Source: Oscillospiraceae bacterium
GTDB lineage: Bacteria > Bacillota > Clostridia > Oscillospirales > Oscillospiraceae
Assembly: GCA_016292255.1 (NCBI GenBank)
Contig: JAEEZZ010000139.1
Location: 171 to 64,170 of the forward strand
DNA: 64,000 bases
Direction of reading: 5' to 3'
Shown: piece after piece, positions 15,246-49,049 of the stretch
Numbering within the stretch: position 1 is the stretch's first letter
Layout of the letters: every line of letters starts with the position of its first letter
Translations under genes and position numbers: made by a program
The notes under the pieces: model-generated
Told to the model about the DNA's origin: nothing
Databases searched by the model: none
The model's input: the letters and a program-made list of their open reading frames with translations, nothing else

Positions 15246-15283
15246 ACGGAATCGGGAATAAATTTCTATGCTATGCAAATAAA

Positions 15284-15320
15284 AGAAAATCGCCGGAAAC
15301 GGCGATTTTCTTTTATTTTC
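15284..15320 (+). terminator. Rho-independent terminator
   Basis: AGAAAATCGCCG (15284-15295), GAAA loop, CGGCGATTTTCT (15300-15311), then TTTTATTTTC. Confidence 0.65.
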
Positions 15321-15392
15321 TTCTTGAAAAAGCTTTGCTTTTGCATTTTTTTGTTATATAATAACAGAAGGATCATGATGGGAGGCAATTTC

Positions 15393-16049
15393 ATGGACTA
15401 CAAGCAGAGTGTGACGATGAATCCCTCCGGCTTTGTGGTGCTGGCGGATTTTGTGCCCAGCATCGTGCAGGAGATCCGTTATCATTCTTCCTACAATTTC
15501 ATCGGAGAGCGCATCGACGGCTACGAGGAACCCGTCGCGCTGCTGACGAAGGAGGCGGCCCGGGCGCTCAAATCCGTGGCCGGGGAGCTGATCGTCCAGG
15601 GCTACCGGCTCAAGGTGTTCGACGCCTACCGCCCGGCCTGCGCGGTGAAGCACTTCGTCCTCTGGGGCATCGAGGACCAGGACGTCCGCATGAAGCCCTA
15701 CTTCTATCCGGAGCTGGAGAAGCAGGAGCTGTTTGCAAAGGGCTATATCGCCAAGCAGTCCAGCCACAGCCGCGGCAGCGCGGTGGATCTGACGCTGCTG
15801 GATATGAAAACCGGCAAGGAAGTGGACATGGGCAGCCCCTTCGACCTGTTCAGCGAGGCCTCCCACCCGGATTACAGAGGCATCACCGACGAACAGTACG
15901 AGAACCGGATGCGCCTGCAGCGGGTGATGCTCCGCAACGGCTTTCAGCCCATCGATTGCGAGTGGTGGCACTTCGCCCTGGCCGACGAGCCCTACCCGGA
16001 CACCTACTTTGCCTTCCCGGTGTCCTCAGGATACCTTCGCAGATCCTGA
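15393..16049 (+). CDS. D-alanyl-D-alanine dipeptidase (VanX/DdpX family, peptidase M15D)
   Basis: I used the start MDYKQSV (ATG at 15393, after GGGAGG). The zinc-site motifs SSHSRGSAVDLTL and EWWHF are present, and the length is typical of VanX. Confidence 0.9.
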   Translation: MDYKQSVTMNPSGFVVLADFVPSIVQEIRYHSSYNFIGERIDGYEEPVALLTKEAARALKSVAGELIVQGYRLKVFDAYRPACAVKHFVLWGIEDQDVRMKPYFYPELEKQELFAKGYIAKQSSHSRGSAVDLTLLDMKTGKEVDMGSPFDLFSEASHPDYRGITDEQYENRMRLQRVMLRNGFQPIDCEWWHFALADEPYPDTYFAFPVSSGYLRRS

Positions 16050-16104: not shown

Positions 16105-16404
16105 ATGCTGAACATCAACAAAACCGTGGAAAACAATACCGCCGCCGTTTCTCTGGAGGGACGGCTGGACACCGTCACCGCGCCGGAGCTGGAGAAGGCT
16201 CTGATGGAGCTCATACCCGATCTGACGGAGCTGAAGCTGGATTTTACCGACCTGGACTACATCTCCTCGGCCGGCCTGCGGGTGCTGCTGGCTGCCCAGA
16301 AGGCGATGAACAAGCAGGGCAGCATGACGCTGACCCATGTCAATGAGGCTGTGATGGAGATCCTGGAGGTCACCGGCTTTACCGACATTCTGACGATCCG
16401 ATGA
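16105..16404 (+). CDS. STAS-domain anti-sigma-factor antagonist (SpoIIAA/RsbV-like)
   Basis: 99-aa ORF. LDFTDLDYISSAGLRVLL carries the conserved phosphorylatable Ser context, and the C-terminus is EILEVTGFTDIL. Confidence 0.9.
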   Translation: MLNINKTVENNTAAVSLEGRLDTVTAPELEKALMELIPDLTELKLDFTDLDYISSAGLRVLLAAQKAMNKQGSMTLTHVNEAVMEILEVTGFTDILTIR

Positions 16405-18563
16405 AGATCATAAAGGGGATCAAGATCGGGGGCCTGCAGCAGAAGATATTCAATCTCATGCTGTTCTTCCTGATTGCGCTGATCGGCGCGTTCCTGGCCA
16501 TTTCCGCCTACCAGCAGAAGAATCTGACCCGCACGGTGCAGGACGCGAACGACAGGCAGCAGAAGTCCATCGAGGCTGTTTCCGAGGAGACGATGCTGGC
16601 GGTGCTGAACAGCACCATGACCCAGACCACCGAGCTGCAGGCCTATATCGCGGACGACCTGTTCTCCCAGGTCCGCTCCGATGTGCTGACGCTGCAGACC
16701 TTTGCCACGGAGCTGTTCACCCATTCGGAGAGCTTCAATGACCATCCCATCGAGCCTCCGTCGGCGCAAAACGACGGGACGCCCACAGCGCAGCTCATCC
16801 ATGAGCAGGGGGTGGATCCGTCCCAGTCTCAGACCCTGGGCCTGGTAGCCCATATGAGCGAGATCATGGTGGCCATGTATGAATCCACCAACACCATCAG
16901 CAGCGTCTACGTGGCCACTGCCGACGGGAACATGGTCCTTGTGAACGACCGCCCCGGCACCTTCATCGGGGACGACGGAGCGGTCCTGACGCTGGACATC
17001 CGTCATCGCCCCTGGTATACCCAGGCGGTGGAGGCCGGGGAGCTGATCTTCACAGGGGTGGAGATGGACGCCTATACCAGCACGCCCATGCTGGTCTGCG
17101 CTGCACCGGTCTATGACGGCGGGAAGCTTGTAGCTGTGGTCGCCGCGGATATCTACCTCACCTCGATCAACGATTACGTGGCCGGCAAGGCCTCCGAGGG
17201 CAGCTTCGTCTGCGTGATCAACGGCAGCGGGCAGATGCTGTTTTCTCCGAAGCAGGAGGGCAGCTTCCGCGTGGAGCTCGCCGCCGACGCCCCCGATCTG
17301 CGAGAGAGCAAAAACCAACAGCTTGCGGCCTTCGTCCGCTCTGCCATGGAGGCCAACACCGGGCTCCGCCTGGTGGAGGTGGACGGGGAATCCTATTATA
17401 TGTGCGGCGCGCCCATGAAGACAGTGGGCTGGACGGCCGTCTCGGTGGTGGATCGGGAGATCACCCGGCAGCCCACCACCGCGCTGCTGAGCAACTATGA
17501 CCGCATCAACGGGGAAGCCCTGTCCACGTTCGAGGACGGCGCGAAGAACTCGGTGCGGACGCTGGTGGTGCTGCTGTCCGTGATCTGCCTGCTGGCGATC
17601 GGCGCTGCGCTGCTGATCGCCTCCAAGGTGGTGCGGCCCATCGAGCATATGACGAAGCGCATCAACGCCCTGAGCGGCAGCGACGGGGTGTTTGAGATGG
17701 AGCCCATCTATCGCACGAAGGATGAGATCGAGGTGCTGGCCGAATCCTTTGCGACCCTGTCCAAGCGGACGAGGGACTACATCACCCAGATCACCCAGAT
17801 CACCGCCGAGAAGGAACGGATCAGCACGGAGCTTTCCCTGGCGACCAAGATCCAGGCGTCCATGCTGCCCAGCATATTCCCGCCCTATCCGGATCGCCCG
17901 GAGTTCGACCTCTTTGCCTCCATGGATCCTGCCAAGGAGGTGGGCGGCGACTTCTATGATTTCTTCCTGGTGGATGACGACCACCTCTGCGTCGTGATCG
18001 CCGACGTCTCCGGCAAGGGTGTTCCCGCGGCCCTGTTTATGATGGCCTCCAAGATCATCCTGCAGAGCTGCGCCATGCTGGGCCAGCAGCCGGCGGAGAT
18101 CCTGACGAAAACCAACGAGGCGATCTGCTCCAATAACCCGGAGAGTATGTTTGTGACGGCCTGGGTGGGCATTCTGGAGATCTCCACCGGCAAGCTGACT
18201 GCCGCCAACGCCGGCCACGAATACCCGATCCTCAAAGCGCCCAACGGCGATTTCGAGGTGTATAAAGACCGCCACGGCCTTGTGATCGGCGGCATGGCGG
18301 GGCTCAGATACCGCCAATATGAGCTGACCATGGAGCCGGGCTCCAAGCTCTTCCTCTACACGGACGGCGTCCCCGAGGCGACGGACGCAAAGCAGCAGCT
18401 TTTCGGCCTGGATCGAACCGTCGCAGCACTGAATGAAGCCAAAAACGAGACGCCCAGGCAGACGCTGAAAACAGTTCGCCGGAAGGTGGACGAGTTCGTG
18501 GAGGACGCCGAGCAGTTCGACGATCTCACCATGCTATGCCTGGAGTATAAGGGAAAGGAATAG
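16401..18563 (+). CDS. Membrane sensor PP2C phosphatase (TM, dCache-like domain, TM, HAMP, SpoIIE/RsbU-type PP2C)
   Basis: 720-aa ORF that overlaps the STAS stop by 4 nt. It has an extracytoplasmic Cache-like region (YVATADGNMVLVND...RPWYTQAVE...), a HAMP domain (VVRPIEHMTKRINALS...) and PP2C motifs (ELSLATKIQASMLP...VGGDFYDFF...VIADVSGKGVPAALFM...TDGVPEA). Confidence 0.9.
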   Translation: MKIIKGIKIGGLQQKIFNLMLFFLIALIGAFLAISAYQQKNLTRTVQDANDRQQKSIEAVSEETMLAVLNSTMTQTTELQAYIADDLFSQVRSDVLTLQTFATELFTHSESFNDHPIEPPSAQNDGTPTAQLIHEQGVDPSQSQTLGLVAHMSEIMVAMYESTNTISSVYVATADGNMVLVNDRPGTFIGDDGAVLTLDIRHRPWYTQAVEAGELIFTGVEMDAYTSTPMLVCAAPVYDGGKLVAVVAADIYLTSINDYVAGKASEGSFVCVINGSGQMLFSPKQEGSFRVELAADAPDLRESKNQQLAAFVRSAMEANTGLRLVEVDGESYYMCGAPMKTVGWTAVSVVDREITRQPTTALLSNYDRINGEALSTFEDGAKNSVRTLVVLLSVICLLAIGAALLIASKVVRPIEHMTKRINALSGSDGVFEMEPIYRTKDEIEVLAESFATLSKRTRDYITQITQITAEKERISTELSLATKIQASMLPSIFPPYPDRPEFDLFASMDPAKEVGGDFYDFFLVDDDHLCVVIADVSGKGVPAALFMMASKIILQSCAMLGQQPAEILTKTNEAICSNNPESMFVTAWVGILEISTGKLTAANAGHEYPILKAPNGDFEVYKDRHGLVIGGMAGLRYRQYELTMEPGSKLFLYTDGVPEATDAKQQLFGLDRTVAALNEAKNETPRQTLKTVRRKVDEFVEDAEQFDDLTMLCLEYKGKE

Positions 18564-18569
18564 AACGCT

Positions 18570-20117
18570 ATGACAGTTCAACTCAAGGGACGGATCGACT
18601 CCTCCAACGCGGCCCGGATGGAGCAGGAGCTCCTGCAGCAGGTGAACGGACAGAGCGAGGTCGTGCTGGACGCGGCGGAGCTCGCGTATATCTCCAGCGC
18701 CGGCCTGCGCGTCATTCTGCGGATCCGGAAGGATCACCCCACGCTGCGTATCGTCAACGTCAATGCCGACGTGTATGAGATCCTGGACATGACCGGCTTT
18801 ACCGACATGATGTCGGTGGAGAAGGCCTACCGGGTGGTCTCCGTAGAGGGCTGCGAGGAGATCGGCCACGGAGCCAACGGCACCATCTACCGCATCGACA
18901 GGGACAACGTGGTCAAGGTCTACAATAACCCCGAGGCGCTGGAGGATATCCAGCACGAGCGGGAGGTGGCCAAGCTGGCCCTGATCCTGGGGATCCCCAC
19001 GGCCATTTCCTACGACGTGGTCAAGGTGGGGGACAGCTACGGCTCCGTGTTTGAGCTGCTCAACGCCAGCTCCTTCGCCGAGATCCTGGCAAAGGAGCCG
19101 GAAAAGCTGGATTGGTGCGTGGCGGAATACGTGAAAATGCTCCGGCTGATCCACGATACGCCGGTTCCCGCCGGGAAGCTCCCGGACGTGAAGGAAACGG
19201 CGATGAGCTGGGTGACGTATTTGCAGAACTATTTGCCCCAGAGCGCCTGGGACAAGCTGGTGTCGCTGGTGGAGGCTGTGCCCCACGACGACCACATGAT
19301 CCACGGGGACTACCATACCAAGAACCTGGAGCTGCAAAACGGCGAGGTCCTGCTCATCGACATGGACACCCTTGCGGTGGGCAATCCCATCTTCGAGCTG
19401 GCGTCCATGTACAACTCCTTTGTGGGCTTCTATGAGATCGACCATGATGCCATCAAGCAATTCCAGGGCTATGACTGGGAGACCGGCCGGAGCTTCTGGC
19501 GCAAATCCCTTGCGGCCTATCTGGACACCCAATGCCAGGCAAAGATCAAAGAGGTGGAAGACAAGGCCCGCGTGCTGGGATATTCCCGTTTGCTCCGCCG
19601 CGCCATCCGCCTCGGCGGCCTGGACGACGAGAAGAAACGGGCAGAGATCGAGCTCTGGAGATCAGAGCTGCTGGAGCTGCTGGAAAAGACGGATACGCTG
19701 ATGTTCGACCGGAACGAGCTGGAGCTTGAGGCGGTCAAGGAGAATCTGGATGACGTGATCGCCTTTCTGGAGGAGCGGCTCGCAGGCACCAACTGTACCC
19801 CGAAGGCGCTGATGCAGATCAATCTGGCTGTGGAGGAGATCTTCGTCAACATTGCCAGCTACGCCTACAGGCCGGAGACCGGCAAGGCCACGGTGCGCTT
19901 CGAGGTCTCGGAGGAACCGGTCACAGTTACGATCACCTTCCTGGATCACGGGGTCCCCTATGACCCGCTGGCAAGGCAGGATCCGGACGTGACCCTCCCC
20001 GCGGAGGAGCGGGACATCGGCGGCCTGGGCATCTTCCTGACCAAGCAGATCATGGACGATGTGAGCTACGAATACTGCCGCGGGCAGAACATCCTGCGGA
20101 TCAAGAAAACCGTGTAA
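18570..20117 (+). CDS. Three-domain fusion: STAS domain, APH/choline-kinase-like phosphotransferase domain, and RsbW/SpoIIAB-like HATPase_c domain
   Basis: 515-aa ORF. The N-terminal STAS has AELAYISSAGLRVIL...YEILDMTGFTDMM. The middle has a kinase-fold Gly loop plus Lys (IGHGANGTIYRI...VVKVY) and a Brenner motif IHGDYHTKNL plus IDMD. The C-terminus has an N-box-like LAVEEIFVNIASYAY, a G1-like FLDHGVPYDP and a G2-like GGLGIFLTKQIMDDVSY. Confidence 0.85.
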   Translation: MTVQLKGRIDSSNAARMEQELLQQVNGQSEVVLDAAELAYISSAGLRVILRIRKDHPTLRIVNVNADVYEILDMTGFTDMMSVEKAYRVVSVEGCEEIGHGANGTIYRIDRDNVVKVYNNPEALEDIQHEREVAKLALILGIPTAISYDVVKVGDSYGSVFELLNASSFAEILAKEPEKLDWCVAEYVKMLRLIHDTPVPAGKLPDVKETAMSWVTYLQNYLPQSAWDKLVSLVEAVPHDDHMIHGDYHTKNLELQNGEVLLIDMDTLAVGNPIFELASMYNSFVGFYEIDHDAIKQFQGYDWETGRSFWRKSLAAYLDTQCQAKIKEVEDKARVLGYSRLLRRAIRLGGLDDEKKRAEIELWRSELLELLEKTDTLMFDRNELELEAVKENLDDVIAFLEERLAGTNCTPKALMQINLAVEEIFVNIASYAYRPETGKATVRFEVSEEPVTVTITFLDHGVPYDPLARQDPDVTLPAEERDIGGLGIFLTKQIMDDVSYEYCRGQNILRIKKTV

Positions 20118-20136: not shown

Positions 20137-21108
20137 ATGAAACACAAAACGCTGAAAACACTTCTTGTGGCGGGGATCATTTTGGCCTGGATGCTGAGCT
20201 TCGCCGCCTGCACGGACGCCAAAACAAGCGCCGAAACCACCAAGGCGACAAAGCACGAGGCATCGCCGTCGGAGACGGAAGCCCAGAAGCTCCAGGCGCA
20301 GCTTGCCCAGCTGGAGCGGGAGCTTTCCGACGTGAAGGCGGAGCGGGATACGCTCCAAACCCGGCTGCAGGAATGCGAGGGCAAGCTCACCCAGACCCAG
20401 AGCGACCTGGCGGAGGCCAATGCGGCCCTGGAGGAGCTGGCGGATACCGCCGTGACGATGGAGGAGCTGACCGCCGAATACAAGTGCTACAAGAACGTCA
20501 TTTCCCAGGAGGAGGTCAGGAAGACCCTGTTCGGCCAGCCCATCTCCGAGGAGCGCAGCGGCGAATACCGCATCGGCATCGAGACGGCCATCGACGGGGA
20601 TTTTCATGCCAAGCTGACGGTCTATCAGGCCCAGGGCGGCAAATACGTGGAGGTCTTCTCCTGCGATGCCGTGGTGGGCAAAAACGGCCCCGGCAAGCAG
20701 TCTGAGGGCGATACCAAAACGCCCCTCGGCACCTGGACGGTGGGCGAGGCCTATGGCATCAAGGAGGATCCGGGCAGCCTGCTGCCCTACACCCAGGTCA
20801 CCGACGATATGTACTGGTGCGCCACCGGCTCCAACGGCAAAAAGTATAATACCCTGATCTACAAGAGCGACGACCCGGACAACGACTACAGCGAGGACGA
20901 GCATCTGGCGGACTATACCGTTCCGTATGCCTACCTCCTGGATCTGGGATACAACGCTTCCTGCGCGCCGTACGCGGGCAACGCGATCTTCCTGCACTGC
21001 TGGAAGGGGCCGGACTACCCCACCGGCGGCTGTGTGGGTGTTTCCGAGGAAAGCATGATCAAGATCCTCCAGACCATCACTCCCGGCACCTCCGTGACGA
21101 TCTACTGA
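20137..21108 (+). CDS. Lipoprotein L,D-transpeptidase (YkuD/ErfK family) with an N-terminal coiled coil
   Basis: 323-aa ORF with a lipobox (LSFAAC). The coiled coil is roughly aa 45-110. The C-terminal catalytic region has GKNGPGKQSEGDTKTPLGTW...IFLHCWKGPDYPTGGCVGV (an H...GC motif). Confidence 0.8.
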   Translation: MKHKTLKTLLVAGIILAWMLSFAACTDAKTSAETTKATKHEASPSETEAQKLQAQLAQLERELSDVKAERDTLQTRLQECEGKLTQTQSDLAEANAALEELADTAVTMEELTAEYKCYKNVISQEEVRKTLFGQPISEERSGEYRIGIETAIDGDFHAKLTVYQAQGGKYVEVFSCDAVVGKNGPGKQSEGDTKTPLGTWTVGEAYGIKEDPGSLLPYTQVTDDMYWCATGSNGKKYNTLIYKSDDPDNDYSEDEHLADYTVPYAYLLDLGYNASCAPYAGNAIFLHCWKGPDYPTGGCVGVSEESMIKILQTITPGTSVTIY

Positions 21109-21137: not shown

Positions 21138-22007
21138 GTGCGGATCCCGACTAAGATTGATTTGCATACCCATTCCACGGTCTCCGACGGCACCGATACG
21201 CCGGAGGCGCTGCTGCAGTGCGCCCGTGCGGCCGGGCTGGAGCTGTTTTCCCTCACCGACCATGACGCGATCAAGGGCTGTGAGCAGATCCAGGCGCTGC
21301 GGGGGGCGGACGATCCGCGCTTCCTCCCCGGCGTGGAGTTTTCCTGCAGGGATGAAGAAGGGAAATACCATATCCTCGGCTATGGGTATGACGCGAAAAC
21401 AGAGGCGATCCGATCCACGGTGGCCCACGGCCACAGCATCCGGATGCGTAAGCTCCGGATGCGGCTGGACTATCTGAAGACCCAGTTCGGCTTTGCCTTC
21501 CCGGAAGCGGAGCTGGAAGCGCTCCTGGCGCTGGACAATCCGGGCAAGCCCCACATCGGCAATCTGATGGTGAAGCACGGCTTTGCCCCCACGAAGGAGA
21601 TCGCCATCAAGGACTATCTGGATCAGCTTCGGATCCGTTCGGAGTACATCCGCCCCGAGGAGGCCATTGCCGGCATCCTGGGCAGCGGCGGTATCCCGGT
21701 GCTGGCCCACCCCTGCTACGGCAGCGGGGATGAGCTGATCCTCGGGCCGGCGCTGGAGGAGAGAGTCAAAAAGCTGATGGCCTTCGGCCTGCAGGGCGTG
21801 GAGGCGTTCTACTCCGGCTTTTCCGAAAAGCTCCGGGCGGAGCTGCTTGCCCTGGCGGAGCGCTGCGGGCTCTACGTCACCGCCGGCAGCGACTACCACG
21901 GCACGAATAAGCTCGTTCCCCTGGGCTTCACCGGCCTGGAACCGAAGATGGAGCTCGTAGACGGTATGCGCCGTTTTCTGGAGCGTGTGAGCGGCGCGCC
22001 GGGTTAG
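21138..22007 (+). CDS. PHP-domain metal-dependent phosphoesterase (TrpH/YciV-like)
   Basis: 289-aa ORF with a GTG start. IDLHTHSTVSDGTDTPEAL...LTDHDAIKG...GIPVLAHP...GSDYHG are PHP motifs. Confidence 0.85.
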   Translation: MRIPTKIDLHTHSTVSDGTDTPEALLQCARAAGLELFSLTDHDAIKGCEQIQALRGADDPRFLPGVEFSCRDEEGKYHILGYGYDAKTEAIRSTVAHGHSIRMRKLRMRLDYLKTQFGFAFPEAELEALLALDNPGKPHIGNLMVKHGFAPTKEIAIKDYLDQLRIRSEYIRPEEAIAGILGSGGIPVLAHPCYGSGDELILGPALEERVKKLMAFGLQGVEAFYSGFSEKLRAELLALAERCGLYVTAGSDYHGTNKLVPLGFTGLEPKMELVDGMRRFLERVSGAPG

Positions 22008-22074: not shown

Positions 22075-23604
22075 ATGTTTGAAAGCATCTTGTCACGTTC
22101 CGATATGATCCGCTGTGTGCTCTGCCAGGACGCGCCCTGCAGCTCCGCCTGCACCCGGCTCGACCCTGCCGCGCTGCTGCGGGGCATCTGGTTTCGCAAT
22201 GACAAGACGGCGGCGCTCAGGCTCCCGGAGTCCGACTGCTGCCGGGGCTGTGACGCGCCCTGCGAGGCAGCCTGCGTCCGGCCCCATGAGGTTCCGATCC
22301 AAGGCTTGATGCTGCGGCTTCGGGAGGAACTGCGCCCCAGGCTGGAGCTGCCCCTTCCGGAGGACGAAGGTCTCCTTCGCACGGAGCTCTGCGGCGTTCC
22401 GCTGGAGAACCCCTTCCTGCTTTCCTCCTCGGTGGTTGCCAGCACCTACGATATGTGCGCCAGGGCCTTCGAGGCGGGCTGGGCAGGCGCTTGCTTCAAA
22501 ACCATTTGCTCCTTTGAGATCCATGAGGCTTCGCCGCGATTCTCCGCCATCACCGGGGACAACGGCAGCATCATCGGCTTCAAGAATATCGAGCAGCTCT
22601 CCGACCACAGCGTTGCGGAGAACATGATTATTTTCCGCCGTCTGAAGCAGAACTATCCCACCAAATTCATTCTGGCCTCCATTATGGGGCAGAACGACGC
22701 CGAGTGGGAGGAGCTGGCGCGCCAATGCGAACAAAGCGGCGCGGACGCCATTGAGCTGAACTTCTCCTGCCCCAATATGGCGGACGGGGGCCTGGGCTCG
22801 GATATCGGCCAGGTCCCGGAGCTGGTGGAGCGCTTCACCGCCGCAGCCCGGCGGGGGACAAAGCTGCCGATCCTTGCAAAGCTGACGCCAAACGTGGCCT
22901 CCATGCTCCCCGCAGGGGAGGCTGCCCGGCGCGGCGGCGCAGACGGGCTCGCGGCCATCAATACCATCAAAAGCATCACCGGGATCAATCCCCATACCTA
23001 CGTCTCCGCGCCTGCGGTGCACGGGATGTCAGCCGTGGGCGGCTACAGCGGAAACGCGGTGAAGCCCATTGCTCTGCGCTTTCTGGCGGAGCTGGGGCAG
23101 GATCCCGCCCTGGCCGGAATGCATATCAGCGGCATGGGCGGGGTGGAGACCTGGCGGGATGCCCTGGACTTCATTCTCCTGGGTGCGGGAAGCATCCAGG
23201 TCACCACGGCTGTCATGCAGTACGGCTACCGGATCATAGAGGATCTGAAGGCCGGCTTGAATTACTATCTGGCGGAGAAGGGCTTCCGAAGCGTAAAGGA
23301 GGCCGTGGGCCTGGCGCTGAGCACCGTCAGCGAGACGACGGACGTCCTGGAGCGGGATACCGTTGTTTTGCCGAAATTCCTGCGGGAAAAATGCGTCGGC
23401 TGCGGCCGCTGCGCCATCTCCTGCGCGGACGGCGGCCACCAGGCCATCCGTCTGAACGGGGAGCGGAGGCCGATGCTCAACGGCAAACGCTGCGTCGGCT
23501 GCCATCTGTGTGTGTTGGTGTGCCCCCAGAACGCGATCCGTCCCGGCAGAAAGCGGATCACAAAGCCGAAGACGGAAGAGAACTCTGACAGGGAAGTGAA
23601 CTGA
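22075..23604 (+). CDS. Dihydroorotate/dihydropyrimidine dehydrogenase-like flavoprotein (PreA-like) with a C-terminal 2x[4Fe-4S] ferredoxin domain and an extra N-terminal Cys-rich segment
   Basis: 509-aa ORF. It has a TIM-barrel core (LENPFLLSSSV...IELNFSCPNM...GGVETWRDALDFILLGA) and a C-terminal CxxCxxCxxxC motif twice (CVGCGRCAISC, CVGCHLCVLVCP). The N-terminus has CVLCQDAPCSSAC and CCRGCDAPCEAAC. Confidence 0.8.
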   Translation: MFESILSRSDMIRCVLCQDAPCSSACTRLDPAALLRGIWFRNDKTAALRLPESDCCRGCDAPCEAACVRPHEVPIQGLMLRLREELRPRLELPLPEDEGLLRTELCGVPLENPFLLSSSVVASTYDMCARAFEAGWAGACFKTICSFEIHEASPRFSAITGDNGSIIGFKNIEQLSDHSVAENMIIFRRLKQNYPTKFILASIMGQNDAEWEELARQCEQSGADAIELNFSCPNMADGGLGSDIGQVPELVERFTAAARRGTKLPILAKLTPNVASMLPAGEAARRGGADGLAAINTIKSITGINPHTYVSAPAVHGMSAVGGYSGNAVKPIALRFLAELGQDPALAGMHISGMGGVETWRDALDFILLGAGSIQVTTAVMQYGYRIIEDLKAGLNYYLAEKGFRSVKEAVGLALSTVSETTDVLERDTVVLPKFLREKCVGCGRCAISCADGGHQAIRLNGERRPMLNGKRCVGCHLCVLVCPQNAIRPGRKRITKPKTEENSDREVN

Positions 23605-23605
23605 G

Positions 23606-25360
23606 ATGATAAAAAAGCTGTTCCGGCAGATGCTGGTGACCCAGATCGTTTCCTCCATGACCGTGACCCTTTGTATGCTGATCGACAGTATCATGATCGG
23701 CCGCTTTCTCGGGGTGGATGCCATGAGCGCCTACGGGCTGGCAAGCCCGCTGCTGTTGGTCTTTGCCGCCTTCGGCAGTCTGATCTCCTCGGGCGTGCAG
23801 GTCATGTGCGGAAAGACCGTCGGCGCGGGGGACCGGGAGGCCACCGACGCCTGCTACACGGTGTCTGTGCTGCTGGCAGCCGGGATCTCCGCAGTGGGTC
23901 TGATCCTGGTGTTCCTGTTCCTGGGCCCGCTGACGAGCCTGCTGGGCGCGGGGGAGCCCGGCCCGAACAACCCGGTCTTCGGGCTGACCAAGGACTATAT
24001 CACCGGCTTTATCATCGGCGCGCCCGCATTCCTTTGCGCCCAGATCATGGTGCCCTATATGCAGCTGCTGGGCAGCCGTACCAGGCTTGTGGCGGCAGTG
24101 ATCGCCATGACCGCGGCGGACATCGCCCTGGATCTTCTGAACGTGTTCGTATTCGAGGGCGGGACGCTGGGCATGGGCCTGGCCTCCACCGTGAGCTATT
24201 ACATTGCCGTTGGGGTGGGCGCAGGCGTCTTCCTGCGTAAGGACTGTATGTTCCGCCTCCGGCCCCGGCTGTTTCAGCGGAAGGTATGTCGGGAGCTGGC
24301 CTCCTACGGCGTTCCCACGGTGGTGAATCAGATCAGCATGGTGTTCCTGGTATTCCTGCTGAACCGTCTGCTTCTGAGCGTGGAGGGGACGGTTGCGGTC
24401 GCCGCCTATTCCGTGATCTCCACAGTGGGCAATATCTGCTATTGCTTCGGCTCCGGCACGGGCTCGGTGGCCATGATGCTGGCGGCGATCTTCTATGCGG
24501 ATCGGGACAGAACCTCCATCCGGGAGCTGGTGCGGGTCATGACCCGCAGCGCCGTGGTGCTGGATGTGGCCGTTACGGTGGTGGGTCTGCTGGCCGCCAC
24601 GCCGCTGATCACCCTGTTCCTGGGCCAGGACGTGGGCGCGAAAGCCATCGCGGTCTTCGGTCTGCGGCTGTTTGTGCTGTCCATCCTGCCCTCCTCGCTG
24701 AACTCCACCTTCAAGAACTACTACCAGGGTGTCAACCGCCTGCGGCTCACGGAGCTGATTTCCGTCCTGCAGAACTTCGTCTACCCGGTGGCCTTTGCCT
24801 ATCTGCTCAGCCGTTTCCTCGGCGTGACCGGCATCTGGCTCGGCTTCGTCTGCGGCGAGACGGCCACGCTTCTCAGCTTCTCCGTCCTGGTCTGGCGGCA
24901 TCATGGCGGCTTCTCCCTGTCCGCCGATGCCTACAGTATGCTGGATCCGACCTTCGGCGCCGCGCCGGAGCAGTGCTTCGAGCGCACGATCCAGTCTGCG
25001 GAGGAGGCGGTAGAGGCCTCCGAGCAGATCTGCGCGTTCTGCAGATCCCGGGAGATCGACCGGAAAACCGCCATGCTGATCGGCCTGAGCGTGGAGGAAA
25101 TGACAGTCAACATCATTGAGCACGGCTTCACCAAGGACAGCCGGGAGCACAACGTAGACGTCCGCCTGGTGCTGGAGCAGGACAGCCGGGTCATCCGCAT
25201 CCGGGATAACTGCGTCAGCTTCGACCCGACCAAGTATCTGGAGCTGCATCATTCCGACGACCCTGCCGCCCACATCGGCCTGCGTATGGTGATGGGCATG
25301 ACGAAGGAAGCCTTTTATATCAACACCCTTGGCCTGAACAATCTGACGCTGACAATGTAA
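23606..25360 (+). CDS. MATE-family efflux transporter fused to a C-terminal RsbW/SpoIIAB-like HATPase_c domain (G1 box degenerate)
   Basis: 584-aa ORF whose ATG is 1 nt after the PreA-like stop. About 12 TMs with MATE-like repeats fill aa 1-435. The C-terminal 146 aa or so (24920-25357) has an N-box LSVEEMTVNIIEHGF, a G1 position reading IRDNCVSFDP (no Gly) and a G2-like HIGLRMVMGMTKEAFY. Confidence 0.8.
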   Translation: MIKKLFRQMLVTQIVSSMTVTLCMLIDSIMIGRFLGVDAMSAYGLASPLLLVFAAFGSLISSGVQVMCGKTVGAGDREATDACYTVSVLLAAGISAVGLILVFLFLGPLTSLLGAGEPGPNNPVFGLTKDYITGFIIGAPAFLCAQIMVPYMQLLGSRTRLVAAVIAMTAADIALDLLNVFVFEGGTLGMGLASTVSYYIAVGVGAGVFLRKDCMFRLRPRLFQRKVCRELASYGVPTVVNQISMVFLVFLLNRLLLSVEGTVAVAAYSVISTVGNICYCFGSGTGSVAMMLAAIFYADRDRTSIRELVRVMTRSAVVLDVAVTVVGLLAATPLITLFLGQDVGAKAIAVFGLRLFVLSILPSSLNSTFKNYYQGVNRLRLTELISVLQNFVYPVAFAYLLSRFLGVTGIWLGFVCGETATLLSFSVLVWRHHGGFSLSADAYSMLDPTFGAAPEQCFERTIQSAEEAVEASEQICAFCRSREIDRKTAMLIGLSVEEMTVNIIEHGFTKDSREHNVDVRLVLEQDSRVIRIRDNCVSFDPTKYLELHHSDDPAAHIGLRMVMGMTKEAFYINTLGLNNLTLTM

Positions 25361-25414
25361 GAAGCGGTCGGAACGCACCATCGAAAATAATCCGAAAGAA
25401 AGAGAGGGATCGGT

Positions 25415-27346
25415 ATGAAAGAGATCTATTTTCATATTTGCGCCATCCCTCTGTTCACTATGATCCTGATCGTCTGCTATTCCAGAAAGATGACCAAGGG
25501 AAACGCCAATCGCCTCTTCCTTGCGATGACCGTACTGTCGCTGATCAGCACTGTGGCGGATCTGATCATGGTGATTCTGTCCTATCAGCTGCCTTTGACC
25601 GACGCAGAGCGCTTGCTGGATGAGGTGCTGGGCTACGTCTACCTTTCCCTCCACAACCTTACAAACGTTGTAATCCTGCTGTTCCTTCTGTCTCTGACCC
25701 GCATGACCTCGCTGATCCAGAAAAAACGGATCAAGTTCGTCATCAGTCTGCCGTATGTTCTGATCGTCGCTTTTTTGATCCAGAACATCTTTACCCATAC
25801 CATTTTTTCCGTTACGTCTGAGGCAGGATATGCGCGGGGCGTGCTGATGCCGATGATCTACATCATGGCCGCGCTGTACGGCATCGGCGGCCTGGGCTAC
25901 TGCATCTATTCCAAGCGCTTTCTTGCGAAGAACAAGTGGGTTTCTCTGCTGTGTATGTATCTGCTGTCCTATTTCGCTGTTGCGGTCCAGTTTTTCAAGC
26001 CCAAGCTCCTGCTGGAAATGTTCTGCAACGGCCTTGGGATTATGGGCGTCATGCTGTCGGTGATGCGCCCGGAGGAGCGCATGGACAGCATGGTGGGCAT
26101 GGAAAGCTGGAAATCCTACCGGGAGGATCTCCGCAATATCCTTCGCTCCGGCGAGCAGGTGGCCATCGTCGTCATTCGGCTGCCGAATTCCCGGGAGATC
26201 CTCAGCTTCCTGGGGGAGCACAAGTACAACGATTATGTGTCCGAGATCGGAAATGCGCTGCGCGCCCTTCCCTGGAATCACCCGAACCACGTGGAGCTCT
26301 ACTTCGAACGTCCGGGCACGATCTATCTGATCGTGGACAAGGACGAGAAGGAGATGGAGTCGATCGGAGACCGCCTGTATGCGGAGCTTGGGATCCGGCT
26401 GCAGGAATACGCGGCCAACGGCGTTCGCTTCGAGCCGCAGGTGTGCCTGATCCGCTGCCCGGATGATCTGAAGAAGGCGGAGGACATCATCAGCCTGGGC
26501 CATATGTTCTATACCTTCGACAGCGGCAGGGAGAACACCTTCCAGGCAAAGGAGCTCGTTTCCTCCCGGGTCTTTGCCATCCGCTCGCACATGGAGGAGA
26601 TCCTCAAACGCGCCATCCAGGAACAGAATATCGTGATGCACTACCAGCCGATCTACGACGTCCGTACGGGCTGCTTCCACTCTGCGGAGGCCCTGGCCCG
26701 CATTGTGGATCCGGAATTCGGTCTGATCTCTCCCGGCATCTTTATTCCCGCGTCGGAGGAGCTGGGCCTGATCGTCCACATCGGCGACGAGGTGCTGGAG
26801 CAGGTGTTCCGCTTTATTTCCGAGCATGACCTGGAGGCCCTGGGGCTGGAATACATAGAGATCAACCTGTCCGTGGCCCAGTGTATGCAGAGCGTGCTTC
26901 CGGAAAAGATCCGTCATTTGCAGCAAAAATACAACGTAGATCCGCGCCATGTCAATCTGGAGATCACCGAAACGACCTTTGAGAACATCAGCGAGGTGGT
27001 GATGGAGAATGTCCATGAGCTGATCCGCATGGGCTATACCTTCGCGCTGGACGATTATGGCATTGGATATTCCAGCATCCAGCGGGTCAATCATTTCCCG
27101 CTGAAGCTGATCAAAATCGATAAGAGTATGCTGGACGAGGTCTCCTCCAGAAACGGGCGGATGATCCTGGAGCATACGGTGCATATGATGCGGAGCATTG
27201 AGAAGCAGCTCGTGGTGGAGGGCGCGGAGACCCGTGTCGCCGTGGATCTGCTGAAGAAAATGGACTGCGATTATATCCAGGGCTACTATTTCTCCCGGCC
27301 GCTTCCCGCAGAGGACTTTGTCCGCTTCCTGGAAGAACACAAATAA
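25415..27346 (+). CDS. Membrane EAL-domain protein (polytopic N-terminus, degenerate GGDEF-like linker domain, EAL c-di-GMP phosphodiesterase)
   Basis: 643-aa ORF with about 7 TMs at the N-terminus. EAL motifs are YQPIYD...SAEALARI...EITET...ALDDYGIGYSS...KIDKS...VVEGAETR...QGYYFSRP. No GGDEF signature occurs in the middle domain. Confidence 0.85.
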   Translation: MKEIYFHICAIPLFTMILIVCYSRKMTKGNANRLFLAMTVLSLISTVADLIMVILSYQLPLTDAERLLDEVLGYVYLSLHNLTNVVILLFLLSLTRMTSLIQKKRIKFVISLPYVLIVAFLIQNIFTHTIFSVTSEAGYARGVLMPMIYIMAALYGIGGLGYCIYSKRFLAKNKWVSLLCMYLLSYFAVAVQFFKPKLLLEMFCNGLGIMGVMLSVMRPEERMDSMVGMESWKSYREDLRNILRSGEQVAIVVIRLPNSREILSFLGEHKYNDYVSEIGNALRALPWNHPNHVELYFERPGTIYLIVDKDEKEMESIGDRLYAELGIRLQEYAANGVRFEPQVCLIRCPDDLKKAEDIISLGHMFYTFDSGRENTFQAKELVSSRVFAIRSHMEEILKRAIQEQNIVMHYQPIYDVRTGCFHSAEALARIVDPEFGLISPGIFIPASEELGLIVHIGDEVLEQVFRFISEHDLEALGLEYIEINLSVAQCMQSVLPEKIRHLQQKYNVDPRHVNLEITETTFENISEVVMENVHELIRMGYTFALDDYGIGYSSIQRVNHFPLKLIKIDKSMLDEVSSRNGRMILEHTVHMMRSIEKQLVVEGAETRVAVDLLKKMDCDYIQGYYFSRPLPAEDFVRFLEEHK

Positions 27347-40894: not shown

Positions 40895-42217
40895 TCAGTC
40901 GATCACAGTGGTGTAGTAGGTGGTGGTCGTGCCGCCGGTGGTGGTCTGCTTCCAGAAGTACAGGCCGGTGGGAGCGGAGGAGTTCACCATGAAGTACTTG
41001 TTGGAGGAGAAGGCCAGGTAGGGATAGCGGCTGCTGGCGCTGTTGGCAGCGGTCACGTTGCTGCCGCTGATGGACAGGCTCCACTGGCAGTAGCTGGAGG
41101 AGTAGCTGGAGCGGCTGTAGAGGTAGCTGCTGTAGCTGCCCAGGTAGGTGTTGGTGGAGGCGTTCCGGATGCTGTACTTGGAGCCGGTGGAGGCCACGTT
41201 GAACACGTAGGCGTCGGTGGCGCCGGTCAGCACGTCGCCGGAGCAGGTCATGCCGGTGTTGGCAATGGCCACAGCGCCGCCCGCGGAAGCGGATTCATAC
41301 TTGGTGTTGCCGGACAGGCCCTTCAGCACGTACATACTGCCGGTGTTGGTGCCGTAGGTGATGACGTAGCTGCCGGTCCAGTCGGAGGGAGCGGAGCTCA
41401 GCTTCTGGTAGCCTGTGCCGCTGCTGCCGGAGGTGGAGGTGTAGGAGTACAGAGCCCGCAGCGTCACGTTGCCGGTGACCCGGTAGGAGCCGGTGAGGAT
41501 GTTGCCGGGCTGGGTGGTGGAGTTGTTCACCGCAGCGGTGACCCAACCCAGGAAGGTGTAGCCGGCGGGAGCCGCAGCGGTGGGCAGGGTGACGGTGCTG
41601 CCCGCAGTCACGGTCTGGCTGGCGGGAGCGGTGACGCCGTTGGGCACGGAGTAGCTCACCGTGTAGGTGGTCTCAGGCTCGGGGGTGGAGGCGCTGGGGC
41701 TGGTGGTGTAGTAGGTGGTGCCGGTGGCAGTCGCCTTCCACAGCCGGAGCACGTTGGCGTTGTTGGTGCTGGCGGACCAGAAGTACTTGTTGCTGGTGGA
41801 GAAGCCGAAGTAGGGGTAGCTGCCGTTGGCGTAGTTCTTCAGCTGAGCAGCGCCGCTGGAGTTGACCGCAGGCGTCCATCTGCAGTAGGAGGAGTTGTAG
41901 CTGGTGTAGCCGGCCAGGTAGGAGCTGGAGTTCATGCCCATGTAGACGCCGGTAGAAGCGCTCTGCAGGGTGTAGTAGCTGCCGGTGGCGGCCAGGGTGA
42001 AGACGTAAGCGTCGGAGACGTTGGACAGGGTGTTGTTGGACAGGCTCATGCCGGTGGAGGCGTAGGTGGAGGCATTGTTGCTGTTTTCAATCTGGCTGCC
42101 GTTGGAGCTGGGGGTGACGCCCTTCAGCACGTACATATTGGTGGAGTTGCCGTTGGTGATGACGTAGTTGCCGGCCCAGGTGGAGGGCGTGGAGCTCACC
42201 AGCTGGTAGACGTTCTC
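40895..42217 (-). repeat. Copy 1 of a direct repeat of about 1.3 kb shared by the two protease genes (3-prime stalk region)
   Basis: Long runs are identical by eye to 44352-45653, e.g. CAGGTAGGGATAGCGGCTGCTGGCGCTGTTGGC and GATGGACAGGCTCCACTGGCAGTAGCTGGAGGAGTAGCTGGAGCGGCTGTA. The encoded modules look roughly 85-90 percent identical by eye, which I have not computed. Confidence 0.8.
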
Positions 42218-44224: not shown

Positions 44225-44303
44225 ATAGATACTCCTTTTCAAATTTCAGATTGGTTTTTCTATTGAATTGCGCTGCGTAGGACGTTTCGTTCGTCTGGGA
44301 AAG

Positions 44304-44335
44304 GGATGCCCACCATCTTGCGGTGGTGGGCATCC
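44304..44335 (-). terminator. Hairpin downstream of the C1 protease gene (weak T-tract)
   Basis: GGATGCCCACCA (44304-44315) / TGGTGGGCATCC (44324-44335), a 12-bp perfect stem. The minus-strand downstream sequence is CTTTCCC, so it may terminate only partially. Confidence 0.45.
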
Positions 44336-44351
44336 TGCGAGTGTCAGGGGA

Positions 44352-48713: not shown

Positions 48714-49049
48714 GGGGTAGGTCTCCTCTTTCATAAAAATTTTTGCTGTGCGTCTTCCGGACGCCAGCGTAGCAATCATAGCACTAAGATCGAAAAAAGT
48801 CCACAGATTATACATAAATTTTCGTAAAATATTCAGTATTTTTTTGTTCAATATGCCGAATATTAAAAAACGGAGCAGAGTTTTAAAAATGTTTTAACGC
48901 TATGTGTTTTTGTTGTGGAGACAAGGAAAAAATGTGTTTTTTGTGTGAAGATTTCAGAGCTGCAAAAATGAATAGAAACAGGAAGCCGCAGCTTCCGAGG
49001 ATCCAAAAAATGAATACTGTTTTTTTGCCTGCGGAGCCCCCATGGCCGC

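Follow-up and report, generated by a model that had tools for sequence, protein, structure and literature searches.

Why should an efflux pump of the MATE family end in a domain of the kind known from the anti-sigma kinases RsbW and SpoIIAB, and what would such a domain do there? This question is raised by a gene at positions 23606..25360 of the window, the 64,000-nucleotide stretch of DNA that we analysed from a rumen bacterium of the Oscillospiraceae (Clostridia); all features described below lie on its plus strand unless stated otherwise. The gene encodes 584 aa plus a stop codon, and the ORF list and Pfam searches placed both MatE and HATPase_c_2 in this one reading frame. Over 100 homologues of full length, about 584 aa each, have both domains, and the N-terminus of the fusion protein, MIKKLFRQML, is kept in homologues. 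Independent gene calling on a public contig that is 99% identical (L081) returned the same nine genes. A long antisense ORF (23558-27340, minus strand) lies opposite the real fusion gene and was rejected as an artefact of high-GC DNA.

The MATE core (23606..24898, aa 1-431) is DinF/PfMATE-like and has 12 TM helices, as judged from hydropathy and from the AF2 model of the fusion protein. MatE was matched at 98 bits (cut-off 24.9, E 6e-28), while TIGR00797 scored 130 bits, under its strict cut-off of 147.4, and searches of PDB sequences with the core retrieved DinF-BH and PfMATE at E 1e-15. In Foldseek, the full-length AF2 model (pLDDT 82, pTM 0.85) superposed on PfMATE 3wbn/3vvn with a TM score of 0.86 and an rmsd of 2.4 Å over ~430 columns. 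The solved MATE chains matched here have 406-510 residues, cover only the first ~430-530 residues of the model, and include none with a regulatory domain. A conserved acidic residue in TM1 of MATE transporters serves cation coupling. In the fusion protein the TM1 Asp is kept as D27, which aligns with D35 of VcmN and with the TM1 Asp of DinF-BH and is invariant in 53 homologues; from this residue and the superposition on PfMATE, the core looks functional. Segments rich in K/R were found at the N-terminus and in the TM6-7 loop, suggesting that both termini, and hence the extra domain, are cytoplasmic. Cell-wall genes nearby and weak Polysacc_synt matches had prompted the idea of a lipid-II or polysaccharide flippase (MurJ/Wzx), which was rejected because true MATE pumps match the core better than MurJ or WzxE.

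The C-terminal tail (24989..25357, aa 462-584, about 125 aa) was assigned to the RsbW/SpoIIAB-like (HATPase_c_2) domains by Pfam, Foldseek and hhalign. HATPase_c_2 covers aa 466-583 with 38.8 bits against a gathering cut-off of 27.4 (E 1.1e-9). An AF2 model of the tail alone (pLDDT 81.4, pTM 0.75) found its best PDB matches in SpoIIAB (1tid, 1th8, 1til and 1l0o, E 2e-7 to 1e-6) and also matched RsbW 6m37 (TM 0.76), UsfX 8ih8 and SiaB 6kko; several of the top structural matches are chains from complexes with STAS antagonists. In hhalign, the tail was related to companion canonical domains with 95% probability. A single-sequence search of PDB sequences with the tail gave no meaningful match, and a profile search of the PDB reached SpoIIAB at E 0.3 only; because these searches were weak, the assignment of the fold rests on Pfam and structure. 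On the evidence of profile match and predicted structure, a GHKL (Bergerat) fold of the single-domain anti-sigma kinase type is confirmed for the tail. The original prediction, that this MATE protein ends in an RsbW/SpoIIAB-like domain, is thus borne out by HATPase_c_2 and by the structural matches to SpoIIAB, RsbW and UsfX; it would have had to be given up if the tail bore no similarity to the GHKL fold, and the tail model has that fold.

The same prediction had named three motifs, EEMTVNIIEHG, RDNCVSF and a G2-like segment, and had described the ATP motifs as degenerate. All three are present, and relative to the canonical paralogous domain Gly is replaced by Cys at G1 and GG by AH at G2. 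The N-box EEMTVNIIEHG (25094..25126, aa 497-507) keeps its Glu and Asn. It aligns with SpoIIAB VSEAVTNAIIHGY, VEEMTVN standing opposite VSEAVTN; E497, E498 and N502 are invariant in the 53-homologue alignment, and the N-box is kept in 134 of 147 diverse representatives of the fusion family. In RsbW/SpoIIAB kinases, the N-box Glu and Asn serve as contact to the substrate Ser and as Mg2+ ligand, respectively. The G1 position, RDNCVSFDP (25202..25228, aa 533-541), aligns with SpoIIAB RDEGV and keeps the Asp, with Cys536 in place of Gly; in the profile-profile alignment (hhalign), DNCVSFDP of the tail lies opposite DHGVPYDP of the canonical domain encoded in the same operon. D[ND]C was found at G1 in 73 of 83 locus copies of the tail, and among the 147 representatives the third position of G1 is Cys in 118 and Gly in 13. 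In the G2-like segment, AHIGLRMV (25268..25291, aa 555-562), only the last Gly remains of GGxG, and His556 is a conserved residue. The canonical IGGLGIF maps to AAHIGLR of the tail in hhalign, the lid of the tail is 4 residues shorter, and the tail lacks the Arg found before G2 in every canonical companion. H[IVM]G occupies G2 in about 72 of the 83 locus copies, and the first position of G2 is N in 59, H in 41 and G in 16 of the 147 representatives. Some family members carry Gly at G1 and/or G2. The canonical companion domains (n=31), by comparison, have D-x-G in all cases and an invariant GGLG; the tail shares 21% identity with the canonical domain of its own operon and scores 38.8 bits with HATPase_c_2 against 85.9 for that companion. 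Four conserved Cys/His residues, C479, C536, H548 and H556, lie in or close to the former nucleotide pocket. The conservation of the G1 and G2 substitutions across the family argues that they were selected and are not decay, and we infer from the sequence that the tail is kinase-impaired or has lost kinase activity.

Core and tail are joined by a linker (24899..24988, aa 432-461) with the motif SLSADAYSML, conserved among closer homologues. A strict, mis-specified pattern for this motif matched 0 of 73 full-length members among the diverse representatives; SLSADAYSML-like sequences, for example LSSNAFAFL, are present in diverse full-length representatives. The pLDDT of the linker was 52-61 with the domain modelled alone versus 84-92 in the full-length AF2 model, and this gain suggests that the linker packs on the transporter core. 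Together with the pTM of 0.85, it fits a tail that is coupled to the core.

The fusion gene belongs to a compact cluster: the genes from ~15.4 to 27.3 kb are all on the plus strand with gaps of at most 67 nt, and a strong terminator-like hairpin of 19 pairs found in a terminator scan (15277..15318) probably delimits the operon on its upstream side. An Rfam scan of the window at gathering thresholds found no RNA family. A stand-alone STAS protein of 99 aa (16105..16404) was identified by phmmer and iterated HMM searches, and Pfam STAS was called on the identical gene in L081. It carries YISSAGLRV with a phosphorylatable Ser, as does the STAS domain of a 515-aa protein encoded further downstream. 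The next gene (16401..18563) encodes a membrane sensor phosphatase with Pfam dCache_1, HAMP and SpoIIE (PP2C) domains, the SpoIIE profile being covered in full (E 1.9e-51). The 515-aa protein (18570..20117) combines a STAS domain, an APH-family kinase and a canonical RsbW-like kinase domain (Pfam STAS, APH and HATPase_c_2); its C-terminal domain matched RsbW 6m36 at E 1e-5 and has DHG and GGLG intact. Further genes encode a PHP-domain phosphoesterase (21138..22007, Pfam PHP), a recurrent partner of the STAS-APH gene, and a PreA-like Fe-S flavoprotein (22075..23604, NCBIfam PreA, 519.7 bits against a cut-off of 335); a gene for a membrane EAL protein comes after the pump. The nearest partner-switch gene lies 3.5 kb from the pump here, with three unrelated genes in between.

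By its domain content, the cluster holds a complete partner-switch set of PP2C, STAS and canonical RsbW-type kinase. Partner-switch genes upstream of the pump had been predicted, and they are found as the 99-aa STAS gene followed by the SpoIIE phosphatase and STAS-APH-HATPase_c_2 genes; the canonical kinase domain fused to STAS and APH had gone unmentioned, and its presence makes a division of labour between kinase and receptor plausible. Among the STAS domains of the related loci, Tyr-x-x-Ser is kept in every one (n=53), and the Ser aligns with S58 of SpoIIAA in 53/53, in an alignment whose reference sequences serve for orientation only. In RsbV, the Tyr-x-x-Ser motif touches K44/S48 and E49 of RsbW (PMC7340262), and E49 has its counterpart in the invariant E497/E498 of the tail.

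To place the window in context, we considered the family as a whole. When clustered at 90% identity, the fusion sequences fall into no fewer than 764 groups, most of them of rumen Clostridia; at 50% identity the number of clusters is between 148 and about 1,200, with rumen and gut Clostridia as the main sources. The co-occurrence figures cover 80 related loci, which were selected by two C-domain peptide patterns and whose neighbours were counted from HMM-assigned ORFs. A STAS, PP2C (SpoIIE) or canonical RsbW-kinase gene lies within 10 kb in 35 of the 80 loci, so that the survey of co-occurrence proposed with the original prediction turned out positive, and within 500 bp in 23 of the 80. Unbiased clustering of neighbours ranked STAS, SpoIIE, STAS-APH-RsbW and PHP first. 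STAS genes number 24.7 per 100 kb at distances up to 500 bp from the fusion vs 1.1 per 100 kb at 5-10 kb. STAS is also the commonest immediate upstream same-strand neighbour (9 loci), and STAS followed by the fusion gene is the classic rsbV-rsbW order. Four-base overlaps of the fusion with partner-switch genes were observed in L003, L008, L017 and L074, and the linkage is spread over several separate clades of the family tree. In clusters of the L039 type, the canonical kinase domain is found on the PP2C protein and is absent from the STAS-APH protein, with the MATE tail retained. PHP occurs in 14 of the 80 loci, each time together with the APH protein; in the L039-type clusters it is replaced by an HD_4 protein, not a flavoprotein, encoded between the pump and STAS-APH. 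The prediction fared less well on the PreA-like gene. Its stop codon (TGA, 23602-23604) does end one base before the ATG of the MATE gene at 23606, giving the junction TGAgATG that had been described, whereas the linked substrate read from this junction found little support: the adjacency (within 150 nt) is kept in 4 of the 80 loci, L001, L002, L006 and L031, which are the nearest relatives, and no more than 3 loci have a Flavodoxin_2 gene downstream at up to about 2 kb, in L063 and L072 as the very next gene. The idea of a substrate link to the flavoprotein was set aside for these reasons.

Because of the adjacency of STAS genes, the parts set that stays constant while being shuffled, and the lack of a recurrent sigma gene, we favour an output other than a sigma factor, and the pump is probably what this sigma-less partner switch controls. 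The proposed sequence of events is as follows. The fusion would be a working H+-coupled exporter of the DinF type with a cytoplasmic RsbW/SpoIIAB-type tail, which has kept the fold and the STAS-facing Glu of the N-box and lost the glycines of the G1/G2 ATP boxes. The tail would most likely receive the STAS protein or proteins of the same cluster in their unphosphorylated state, without phosphorylating them. The dCache-HAMP-PP2C phosphatase would sense something extracellular and dephosphorylate STAS, and the canonical RsbW-type kinase domain, located on STAS-APH here and on PP2C in other lineages, would re-phosphorylate it. Free STAS could then dock on the tail of the pump, altering the transport cycle and/or being retained at the membrane. 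STAS binding by the tail and control of efflux are what we infer, chiefly from the conserved adjacency of the genes, and we give an even chance to the proposal that a partner switch without a sigma factor has the pump as its output, or as a sink at the membrane, by virtue of a kinase-impaired STAS receptor. A more elaborate version, which we think improbable as it stands, is a fast post-translational module for xenobiotic or envelope stress, in which dCache-PP2C would act through STAS on both the pump and the STAS-APH kinase with its PHP/HD phosphoesterase, and in which the Cys/His pocket of the kinase-dead receptor may bind metal or sense redox.

The neighbourhood data suit both directions of signalling, and the pump might instead be the input. 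The transport state of the MATE core would then act via the linker, so that STAS or the canonical kinase is bound or let go by the tail; on the whole we regard this as unlikely. The outputs would be the APH-family kinase, the PHP/HD phosphoesterase or the EAL protein, making the pump a 'trigger transporter' or transceptor, an assignment that is likewise doubtful. Such a direction would make use of the linker, which is conserved in closer homologues and predicted to pack on the core, and of the enzymatic APH domain, which is fused to STAS and recurs with PHP or HD partners; an EAL protein, encoded after the pump here, also occurs no more than 10 kb away from the fusion in about 5 further loci. 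However, the cluster already has a dedicated sensor in the extracellular dCache domain of the PP2C protein, and in the minimal clusters L054, L068, L080 and L064, which are without APH or PHP, the pump is the sole obvious effector.

The remaining readings keep the pump and take a different view of the tail. First, the tail may form a heterodimer of kinase and pseudokinase with the canonical RsbW-like domain, or else a homodimer, so that the kinase is tethered or inhibited, or the pump dimerised, and STAS is not bound; we consider this very unlikely. Tail-type and canonical domains occur together in 30 of the 80 loci, RsbW and SpoIIAB are obligate dimers via helix 1 and strand 1 (PMC7340262), and RsbW3 of M. 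smegmatis binds and antagonises RsbW1 (PMC7693655). Against such pairing, the commonest immediate upstream neighbour is STAS and not a canonical RsbW domain, and the identity between the two domain types is low, at the 21% given above. Second, the tail could be independent of the partner switch, as a sensor of metal, redox or a small ligand built on the former ATP pocket or as a structural appendage, with the neighbourhood reflecting co-regulation only. In 45 of the 80 loci there is no partner-switch gene in the available DNA and the tail is equally conserved; in these loci, either the partners are encoded elsewhere or the tail functions without them. This and the conserved Cys and His residues at or near the pocket speak for independence, but the steep distance gradient, the translational overlap with partner-switch genes and a parts list that stays constant despite domain shuffling do not, and in L011 a remnant tail whose pump core is deleted still adjoins partner-switch genes, so that we give this reading only a slim chance. 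Third, the tail might be an active Ser kinase with an unusual Cys/His nucleotide pocket, and STAS would be its substrate at the membrane. It may still bind nucleotide to some extent, or even be catalytic, because the Glu and Asn of the N-box, the Asp of G1 and the last Gly of G2 are kept, and these Glu/Asn and Asp residues have been described as the most conserved of the HATPase domain (PMC9137472). Nevertheless, the loss of the G1 Gly, of two of the three G2 Gly and of the Arg before G2, the shortened lid and the lower Pfam score all argue against it, a canonical kinase domain, which always accompanies the partner-switch genes, would make a second kinase redundant, and there is little probability that this reading is right. 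Finally, an anti-sigma factor holding a co-encoded sigma factor was rejected, since no sigma factor gene recurs in the linked loci: in the loci linked to partner-switch genes, the sigma-70 family is absent among the Pfam families matched by at least 2 of the 133 other neighbours at up to 3.5 kb. This covers co-encoded sigma factors; the tail may still hold one that is encoded elsewhere.

Sigma-factor regulation is what partner switches are mainly known for, and examples with other outputs are increasing in number. In the literature searched, there was no description of a MATE protein fused to an RsbW-like domain, nor of a regulated C-terminal domain in a MATE protein; here, a large family has the machinery of the switch joined directly to a transporter. 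If docking of STAS on the tail is true, efflux would be controlled within seconds and without transcription, by a new route, and the family would offer a natural transition from kinase to pseudokinase, for which the operon itself supplies the active paralogue as control. It would also bear on how rumen bacteria deal with plant toxins or antibiotics. If the broader module for xenobiotic or envelope stress is true, the fusion would be the first MATE transporter that has a signalling domain of its own, and the switch the first to end on a transporter. Family members are carried by the cultured Ruminococcaceae bacterium FB2012 and Lachnospiraceae bacterium AD3010, so that the idea of a switch-controlled pump is open to experiment.

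The preferred reading, a pump with a STAS receptor as its tail, can be compared with several known systems. Like RsbW/SpoIIAB with RsbV/SpoIIAA, the fusion has a Bergerat fold with N-box Glu and Asn, the gene order of STAS followed by an RsbW-like gene (9 loci), a co-encoded STAS with Tyr-x-x-Ser and a PP2C phosphatase in the cluster; unlike them, its domain sits on a 12-TM transporter, has Cys for the G1 Gly, AHxG at G2 and a short lid, and lacks a recurrent sigma factor gene in its neighbourhood. Of the M. smegmatis paralogues, RsbW2 is the kinase and RsbW1 is devoid of kinase activity (PMC7693655). Our prediction for the fusion resembles mycobacterial UsfX/RsbW1 beside RsbW2, in that a STAS-binding RsbW paralogue that does not phosphorylate would coexist with a separate canonical kinase; UsfX/RsbW1 are soluble and sequester SigF, whereas the tail is attached to a pump, with no sign of a sigma factor. 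Partner switches with outputs other than sigma factors include SypA/SypE, HsbA/HsbR, SiaABCD and All4160/HenR of Anabaena. The target of the STAS switch in Anabaena is a biosynthetic enzyme (bioRxiv 10.64898/2026.04.08.717354). The fusion would share with these four systems (see also the review PMC8256260) a phospho-controlled STAS acting directly on a non-transcriptional target, and SiaB 6kko is among the structural matches of the tail, but they have neither a transporter partner nor an RsbW-like module on the target. As a transporter, the fusion is like DinF-BH, PfMATE and VcmN in its 12 TM helices, its TM1 Asp and its TM score of 0.86 to PfMATE, and unlike them it continues into a conserved linker and a signalling domain of 125 aa. 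SLC26/SulP transporters bear a C-terminal STAS domain, and in GlnK-AmtB and EIIA-Glc a small signalling protein acts at the cytoplasmic face of a transporter. By analogy, the fusion may belong with these, as a transporter linked to a modification-controlled signalling partner with the genes conserved as a pair. The tail has no homology to PII (GlnK) or PTS (EIIA-Glc) proteins, and the logic of the switch, an analogy of our own, would be comparable to GlnK-AmtB or to inducer exclusion by EIIA-Glc. With respect to SulP, which carries the STAS domain itself, the fusion transporter carries the putative STAS-binding partner and, if docking is true, would be its mirror image.

The gene at 23606-25360 (+) is an ORF encoding a 584-aa protein, the first ~430 aa of which match the Pfam family MatE at E 6e-28. 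Hydropathy and AF2 secondary structure revealed 12 TM helices, and together with the K/R-rich segments at the N-terminus and in the TM6-7 loop this indicates that both termini, and hence the tail (aa 462-584), should lie on the cytoplasmic side. Against PDB sequences, the core matched DinF-BH and PfMATE at E 1e-15. In a structure search, the full-length AF2 model (pLDDT 82, pTM 0.85) fitted PfMATE with a TM of 0.86 and an rmsd of 2.4 A, and it was closer to outward-facing structures than to the inward-facing 6fhz (TM 0.69). MurJ and WzxE were rejected as matches of the core, their structural fit being poorer than that of true MATE pumps. Residue D27, which aligns with D35 of VcmN and with the TM1 Asp of DinF-BH, is invariant in 53 homologues. 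The protein is a MATE family member, and every MATE feature open to testing was found in it. The linker motif SLSADAYSML is kept among the closer homologues, and the linker pLDDT, 52-61 with the tail modelled on its own, was 84-92 in the model of the whole protein, which suggests that the linker packs on the transporter core.

Pfam assigned aa 466-583 to HATPase_c_2, the RsbW/SpoIIAB-type 'histidine kinase-like ATPase' family (38.8 bits; curated cut-off 27.4). The tail sequence alone gave zero matches to PDB sequences, and with a family profile SpoIIAB was found at no better than E 0.3, the N-box and G1 regions being correctly aligned. An AF2 model of the tail built from 66 homologues (pLDDT 81.4, pTM 0.75) had as its top PDB matches the SpoIIAB structures 1tid, 1th8, 1til and 1l0o (E 2e-7 to 1e-6; TM 0.6-0.7); RsbW 6m37 (TM 0.76) and mycobacterial UsfX 8ih8 were also among the best, and SiaB and histidine-kinase ATP-binding domains ranked lower. 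Because the model matches SpoIIAB, RsbW and UsfX, the objection that the extension lacks the GHKL fold fails, and the RsbW/SpoIIAB-like domain of the original prediction is borne out. We regard the fusion and the identities of its domains as virtually certain.

A full-length search returned at least 764 clusters (90% identity) at E <=1e-20. Both Pfam domains were present in 119 of the best 120 of these, nearly all ~565-600 aa long, the exception being one 495-aa protein with MatE only. When 1.84 billion representatives were searched with the tail profile, 148 clusters (50% identity) were found at E <=1e-30 and 1,215 at E <=1e-10. Among the matches listed, the domain lay at the extreme C-terminus in 150 of 150; 73 of these were 573-628 aa long, and the others are apparently fragments truncated at the N-terminus, being shorter. 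The homologues carry automatic names only ('Na+-driven multidrug efflux pump/anti-sigma regulatory factor' at JGI; 'ATP-binding protein' or 'MATE family efflux transporter' at NCBI), and no description of a MATE and RsbW-like fusion was found in the literature searched. A scan with one genome per species identified 161 relatives, 80 of which were kept as comparison loci (the L numbers below). Nearly all are rumen or gut Clostridia MAGs, with two cultured carriers, Ruminococcaceae bacterium FB2012 and Lachnospiraceae bacterium AD3010. Some genomes contain two paralogous fusions (L014, 8606-10468 and 14328-16178; L056, 8717-10468 and 14547-16406; FB2012, L073 and L078), just 4 kb apart in two cases; the second copies are divergent, with RDYNQAFDP or RDNCIAFNP at G1, and those of L014 and L015 have G-x-G restored at G2. 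At L011 (9965-10468, +) the MATE core is deleted, leaving the last TM residues, linker and tail; this remnant, VWRRHGGFALSTDAYSMLEP plus the tail (140 aa), still adjoins STAS and PP2C-RsbW genes. Other pump-less tails are the proteins P0005, P0014, in which the tail directly follows the first 39 MATE residues, and P0028, in which a dUTPase is joined to it. All of these could be real deletions or fusions, or assembly artefacts or chimeras.

In the window, the gene order is VanX-like dipeptidase, STAS, dCache-HAMP-PP2C, STAS-APH-RsbW, YkuD L,D-transpeptidase, PHP, PreA-like flavoprotein, MATE with RsbW-like tail and membrane EAL protein, and independent gene calls on a 99%-identical public contig (L081, NCBI GCA_024712465.1) give the same nine genes. 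Past a terminator-like hairpin of 19 pairs (15277-15318), every gene to 27346 has + orientation and no gap exceeds 67 nt, and a terminator scan of this stretch found no convincing internal terminator. The listed start of the VanX-like D-Ala-D-Ala dipeptidase gene (15273-16049, +) overlaps this strong hairpin; the real start therefore probably lies further downstream. VanX-like (7 loci, window included), YkuD (20137-21108, +; ~6-7 loci) and DUF218 membrane protein genes (e.g. L012:11901-13133; 5-8 loci) recur as a cell-wall theme round the cluster. The 99-aa STAS gene of the original prediction was located at 16105-16404 (+), and the nearest partner-switch gene is 3.5 kb from the pump. In relatives with 66-72% tail identity, partner-switch genes directly flank the pump, as in L003 (STAS, PP2C, pump, STAS-APH-RsbW, PHP). 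The predicted close junction with the PreA-like gene is present, one base separating its TGA (23602-23604) from the pump ATG; however, PreA adjoins the pump only in L001, L002, L006 and L031, so the linked substrate read from it is but weakly indicated. The PreA-like protein scores above the NCBIfam PreA cut-off and has an extra ~100-aa N-terminal extension (22075-22375, +) that contains two motifs rich in Cys, CVLCQDAPCSSAC and CCRGCDAPCEAAC; a gene for a PreT-like partner was not seen in its vicinity. The gene for the membrane EAL protein (25415-27346, +), which has its c-di-GMP phosphodiesterase domain at the C-terminus, begins 54 nt 3' of the pump gene, and similar proteins occur within 10 kb in ~5 other loci (L027, L036, L037, L063, L072). 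Elsewhere in the window, Listeria-Bacteroides repeats occur in two very large secreted proteins, one of them also bearing papain-like protease and lectin-like domains, and a 1267-aa SLH-domain protein is encoded beyond them (40895-48851, -; 55390-59193, +); at 40-48 kb, where GC skew is strongly positive, the skew coincides with these genes.

When neighbours were clustered without prior labels, the most recurrent families were, in order, ~100-aa STAS, SpoIIE-type PP2C, STAS-APH-RsbW and PHP phosphoesterase. With iterated HMMs, 35 of 80 loci had one or more STAS, PP2C or canonical RsbW genes within 10 kb, 33 had them within 3 kb and 23 within 500 bp; where >=5 kb of DNA was available on both sides, 24 of 47 loci had one within 5 kb. 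STAS genes numbered 24.7 per 100 kb at <=500 bp from the pump gene and 1.1 at 5-10 kb. The immediate same-strand upstream neighbour was STAS in 9 loci, PP2C in 5, STAS-APH-RsbW in 3 and stand-alone canonical RsbW in 2, while STAS-APH with or without RsbW was immediately downstream in 6. In the classic rsbV-rsbW and spoIIAA-spoIIAB arrangement, too, the STAS gene comes before the RsbW-like one. In L003, L008, L017 and L074, the pump gene overlaps partner-switch genes by four bases, and loci with the linkage are spread over several distinct clades of the family tree. The expected co-occurrence of the fusion with STAS and PP2C genes is therefore found. Five loci (L039, L040, L048, L051, L059) have the canonical kinase domain on PP2C and a STAS-APH protein without it, in the order PP2C-RsbW, STAS, pump, HD_4 protein, STAS-APH, and minimal clusters (L054, L064, L068, L080) are reduced to the pump plus STAS, PP2C and a canonical RsbW domain. 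The parts list persists through domain shuffling. Apart from a sigma output, the cluster holds the parts of a partner switch. Among the Pfam families matched by >=2 of 133 other neighbours (<=3.5 kb, partner-switch-linked loci), none was a sigma-70 family. A ~200-aa protein without a Pfam match that adjoins the STAS gene in L072 (7935-8531, +), L047, L054, L061, L063 and L080 could be a further divergent component. Overall, a functional link of the pump to the partner switch is likely.

In the 515-aa protein at 18570-20117 (+), which recurs in 23 of 80 loci, STAS is fused to an APH-family kinase that looks intact, with the motifs HGDYHTKN and IDMD, and to a canonical kinase domain of the RsbW type. 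Beside it stands a phosphoesterase: PHP in 14 loci (21138-22007, +, in the window) and, in the four clusters of the L039 type that were examined (L039, L048, L051, L059), an HD_4 protein; the coordinates of this set include L039:10487-11050. The pairing points to a cycle in which a putative substrate is phosphorylated and dephosphorylated under control of the switch. The pump might be the sensor, with APH, PHP or EAL proteins as the outputs, a reading we consider unlikely.

The motifs quoted in the original prediction were all found in the tail (EEMTVNIIEHG, aa 497-507; RDNCVSFDP, aa 533-541; AHIGLRMV, aa 555-562). As an in-operon control, the C-terminus of the 515-aa protein scored 85.9 bits to HATPase_c_2 and matched RsbW 6m36 at E 1e-5. 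Profile-profile alignment of the pump tails with 31 such companion domains (95% probability, E 2e-8) revealed a common N-box, VEExxxN, a tail lid four residues shorter, D-N-C-V-S-F-D-P at G1 where companions have D-H-G-V-P-Y-D-P, and D-P-A-A-H-I-G at G2 where they have R-x-I-G-G-L-G. By this mapping, the tail lacks the G1 Gly, two of the three G2 Gly and the Arg invariant in companions. D[ND]C occurs at G1 in 73 of 83 pump tails of the loci and H[IVM]G at G2 in ~72; of 147 diverse representatives, 118 have Cys at the G1 position and 13 have Gly, the first G2 position is occupied by N (59), H (41) or G (16), and 134 retain the N-box. The substitutions are conserved rather than random; judged from the motifs, ATP binding and phosphotransfer are probably impaired. 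The N-box Asn and G1 Asp are both still present; in a paper on another HATPase protein, they are described as the only two positions that HATPase domains conserve absolutely (PMC9137472). A tail that is still a kinase is nevertheless improbable. The tail has the fold of active RsbW/SpoIIAB kinases and is missing their G1 and G2 features; we therefore call it RsbW-like rather than an RsbW kinase. Pairing of the tail with the canonical kinase domain, or dimerisation of the pump through it, is equally improbable. A tail function independent of the switch would fit the 45 of 80 loci without partner-switch neighbours and the conserved C479, C536, H548 and H556 lining the old pocket region; set against the linkage in the other loci, we hold this to be just as improbable.

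All 53 STAS domains of the loci contain YISSAGLRV, whose Ser aligns with SpoIIAA S58 (reference sequences used for orientation only). In the RsbV-RsbW crystal structure, Tyr53 and Ser56 of RsbV touch K44/S48 and E49 of RsbW (PMC7340262), and E49 is the counterpart of the invariant E497/E498 in the pump tail. The docking-and-gating model, for which we infer STAS binding to the tail, has about an even chance of being correct. In this model, unphosphorylated STAS would be received by the tail, an RsbW-type domain with impaired kinase function; the dCache-PP2C would set the STAS phosphorylation state on an outside signal, the canonical kinase domain would reset it, and docked STAS would alter the transport cycle, be parked at the membrane, or both. 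The fusion family is large, unstudied and experimentally tractable.

In M. smegmatis, kinase activity resides in RsbW2, while RsbW1 lacks it and binds the sigma factor, and RsbW1 is itself bound by RsbW3 (PMC7693655); this set is a direct precedent for a split of roles among RsbW paralogues. STAS switches with non-sigma outputs are increasingly documented (bioRxiv 10.64898/2026.04.08.717354). A partner switch with an RsbW-like element on a transporter is new relative to what is known, and the proposed mechanism, with its inferred STAS contact, would be new for MATE pumps as well as for partner switches. SulP/SLC26 transporters carry a STAS domain, whereas this pump carries the RsbW-like element, as their mirror image.
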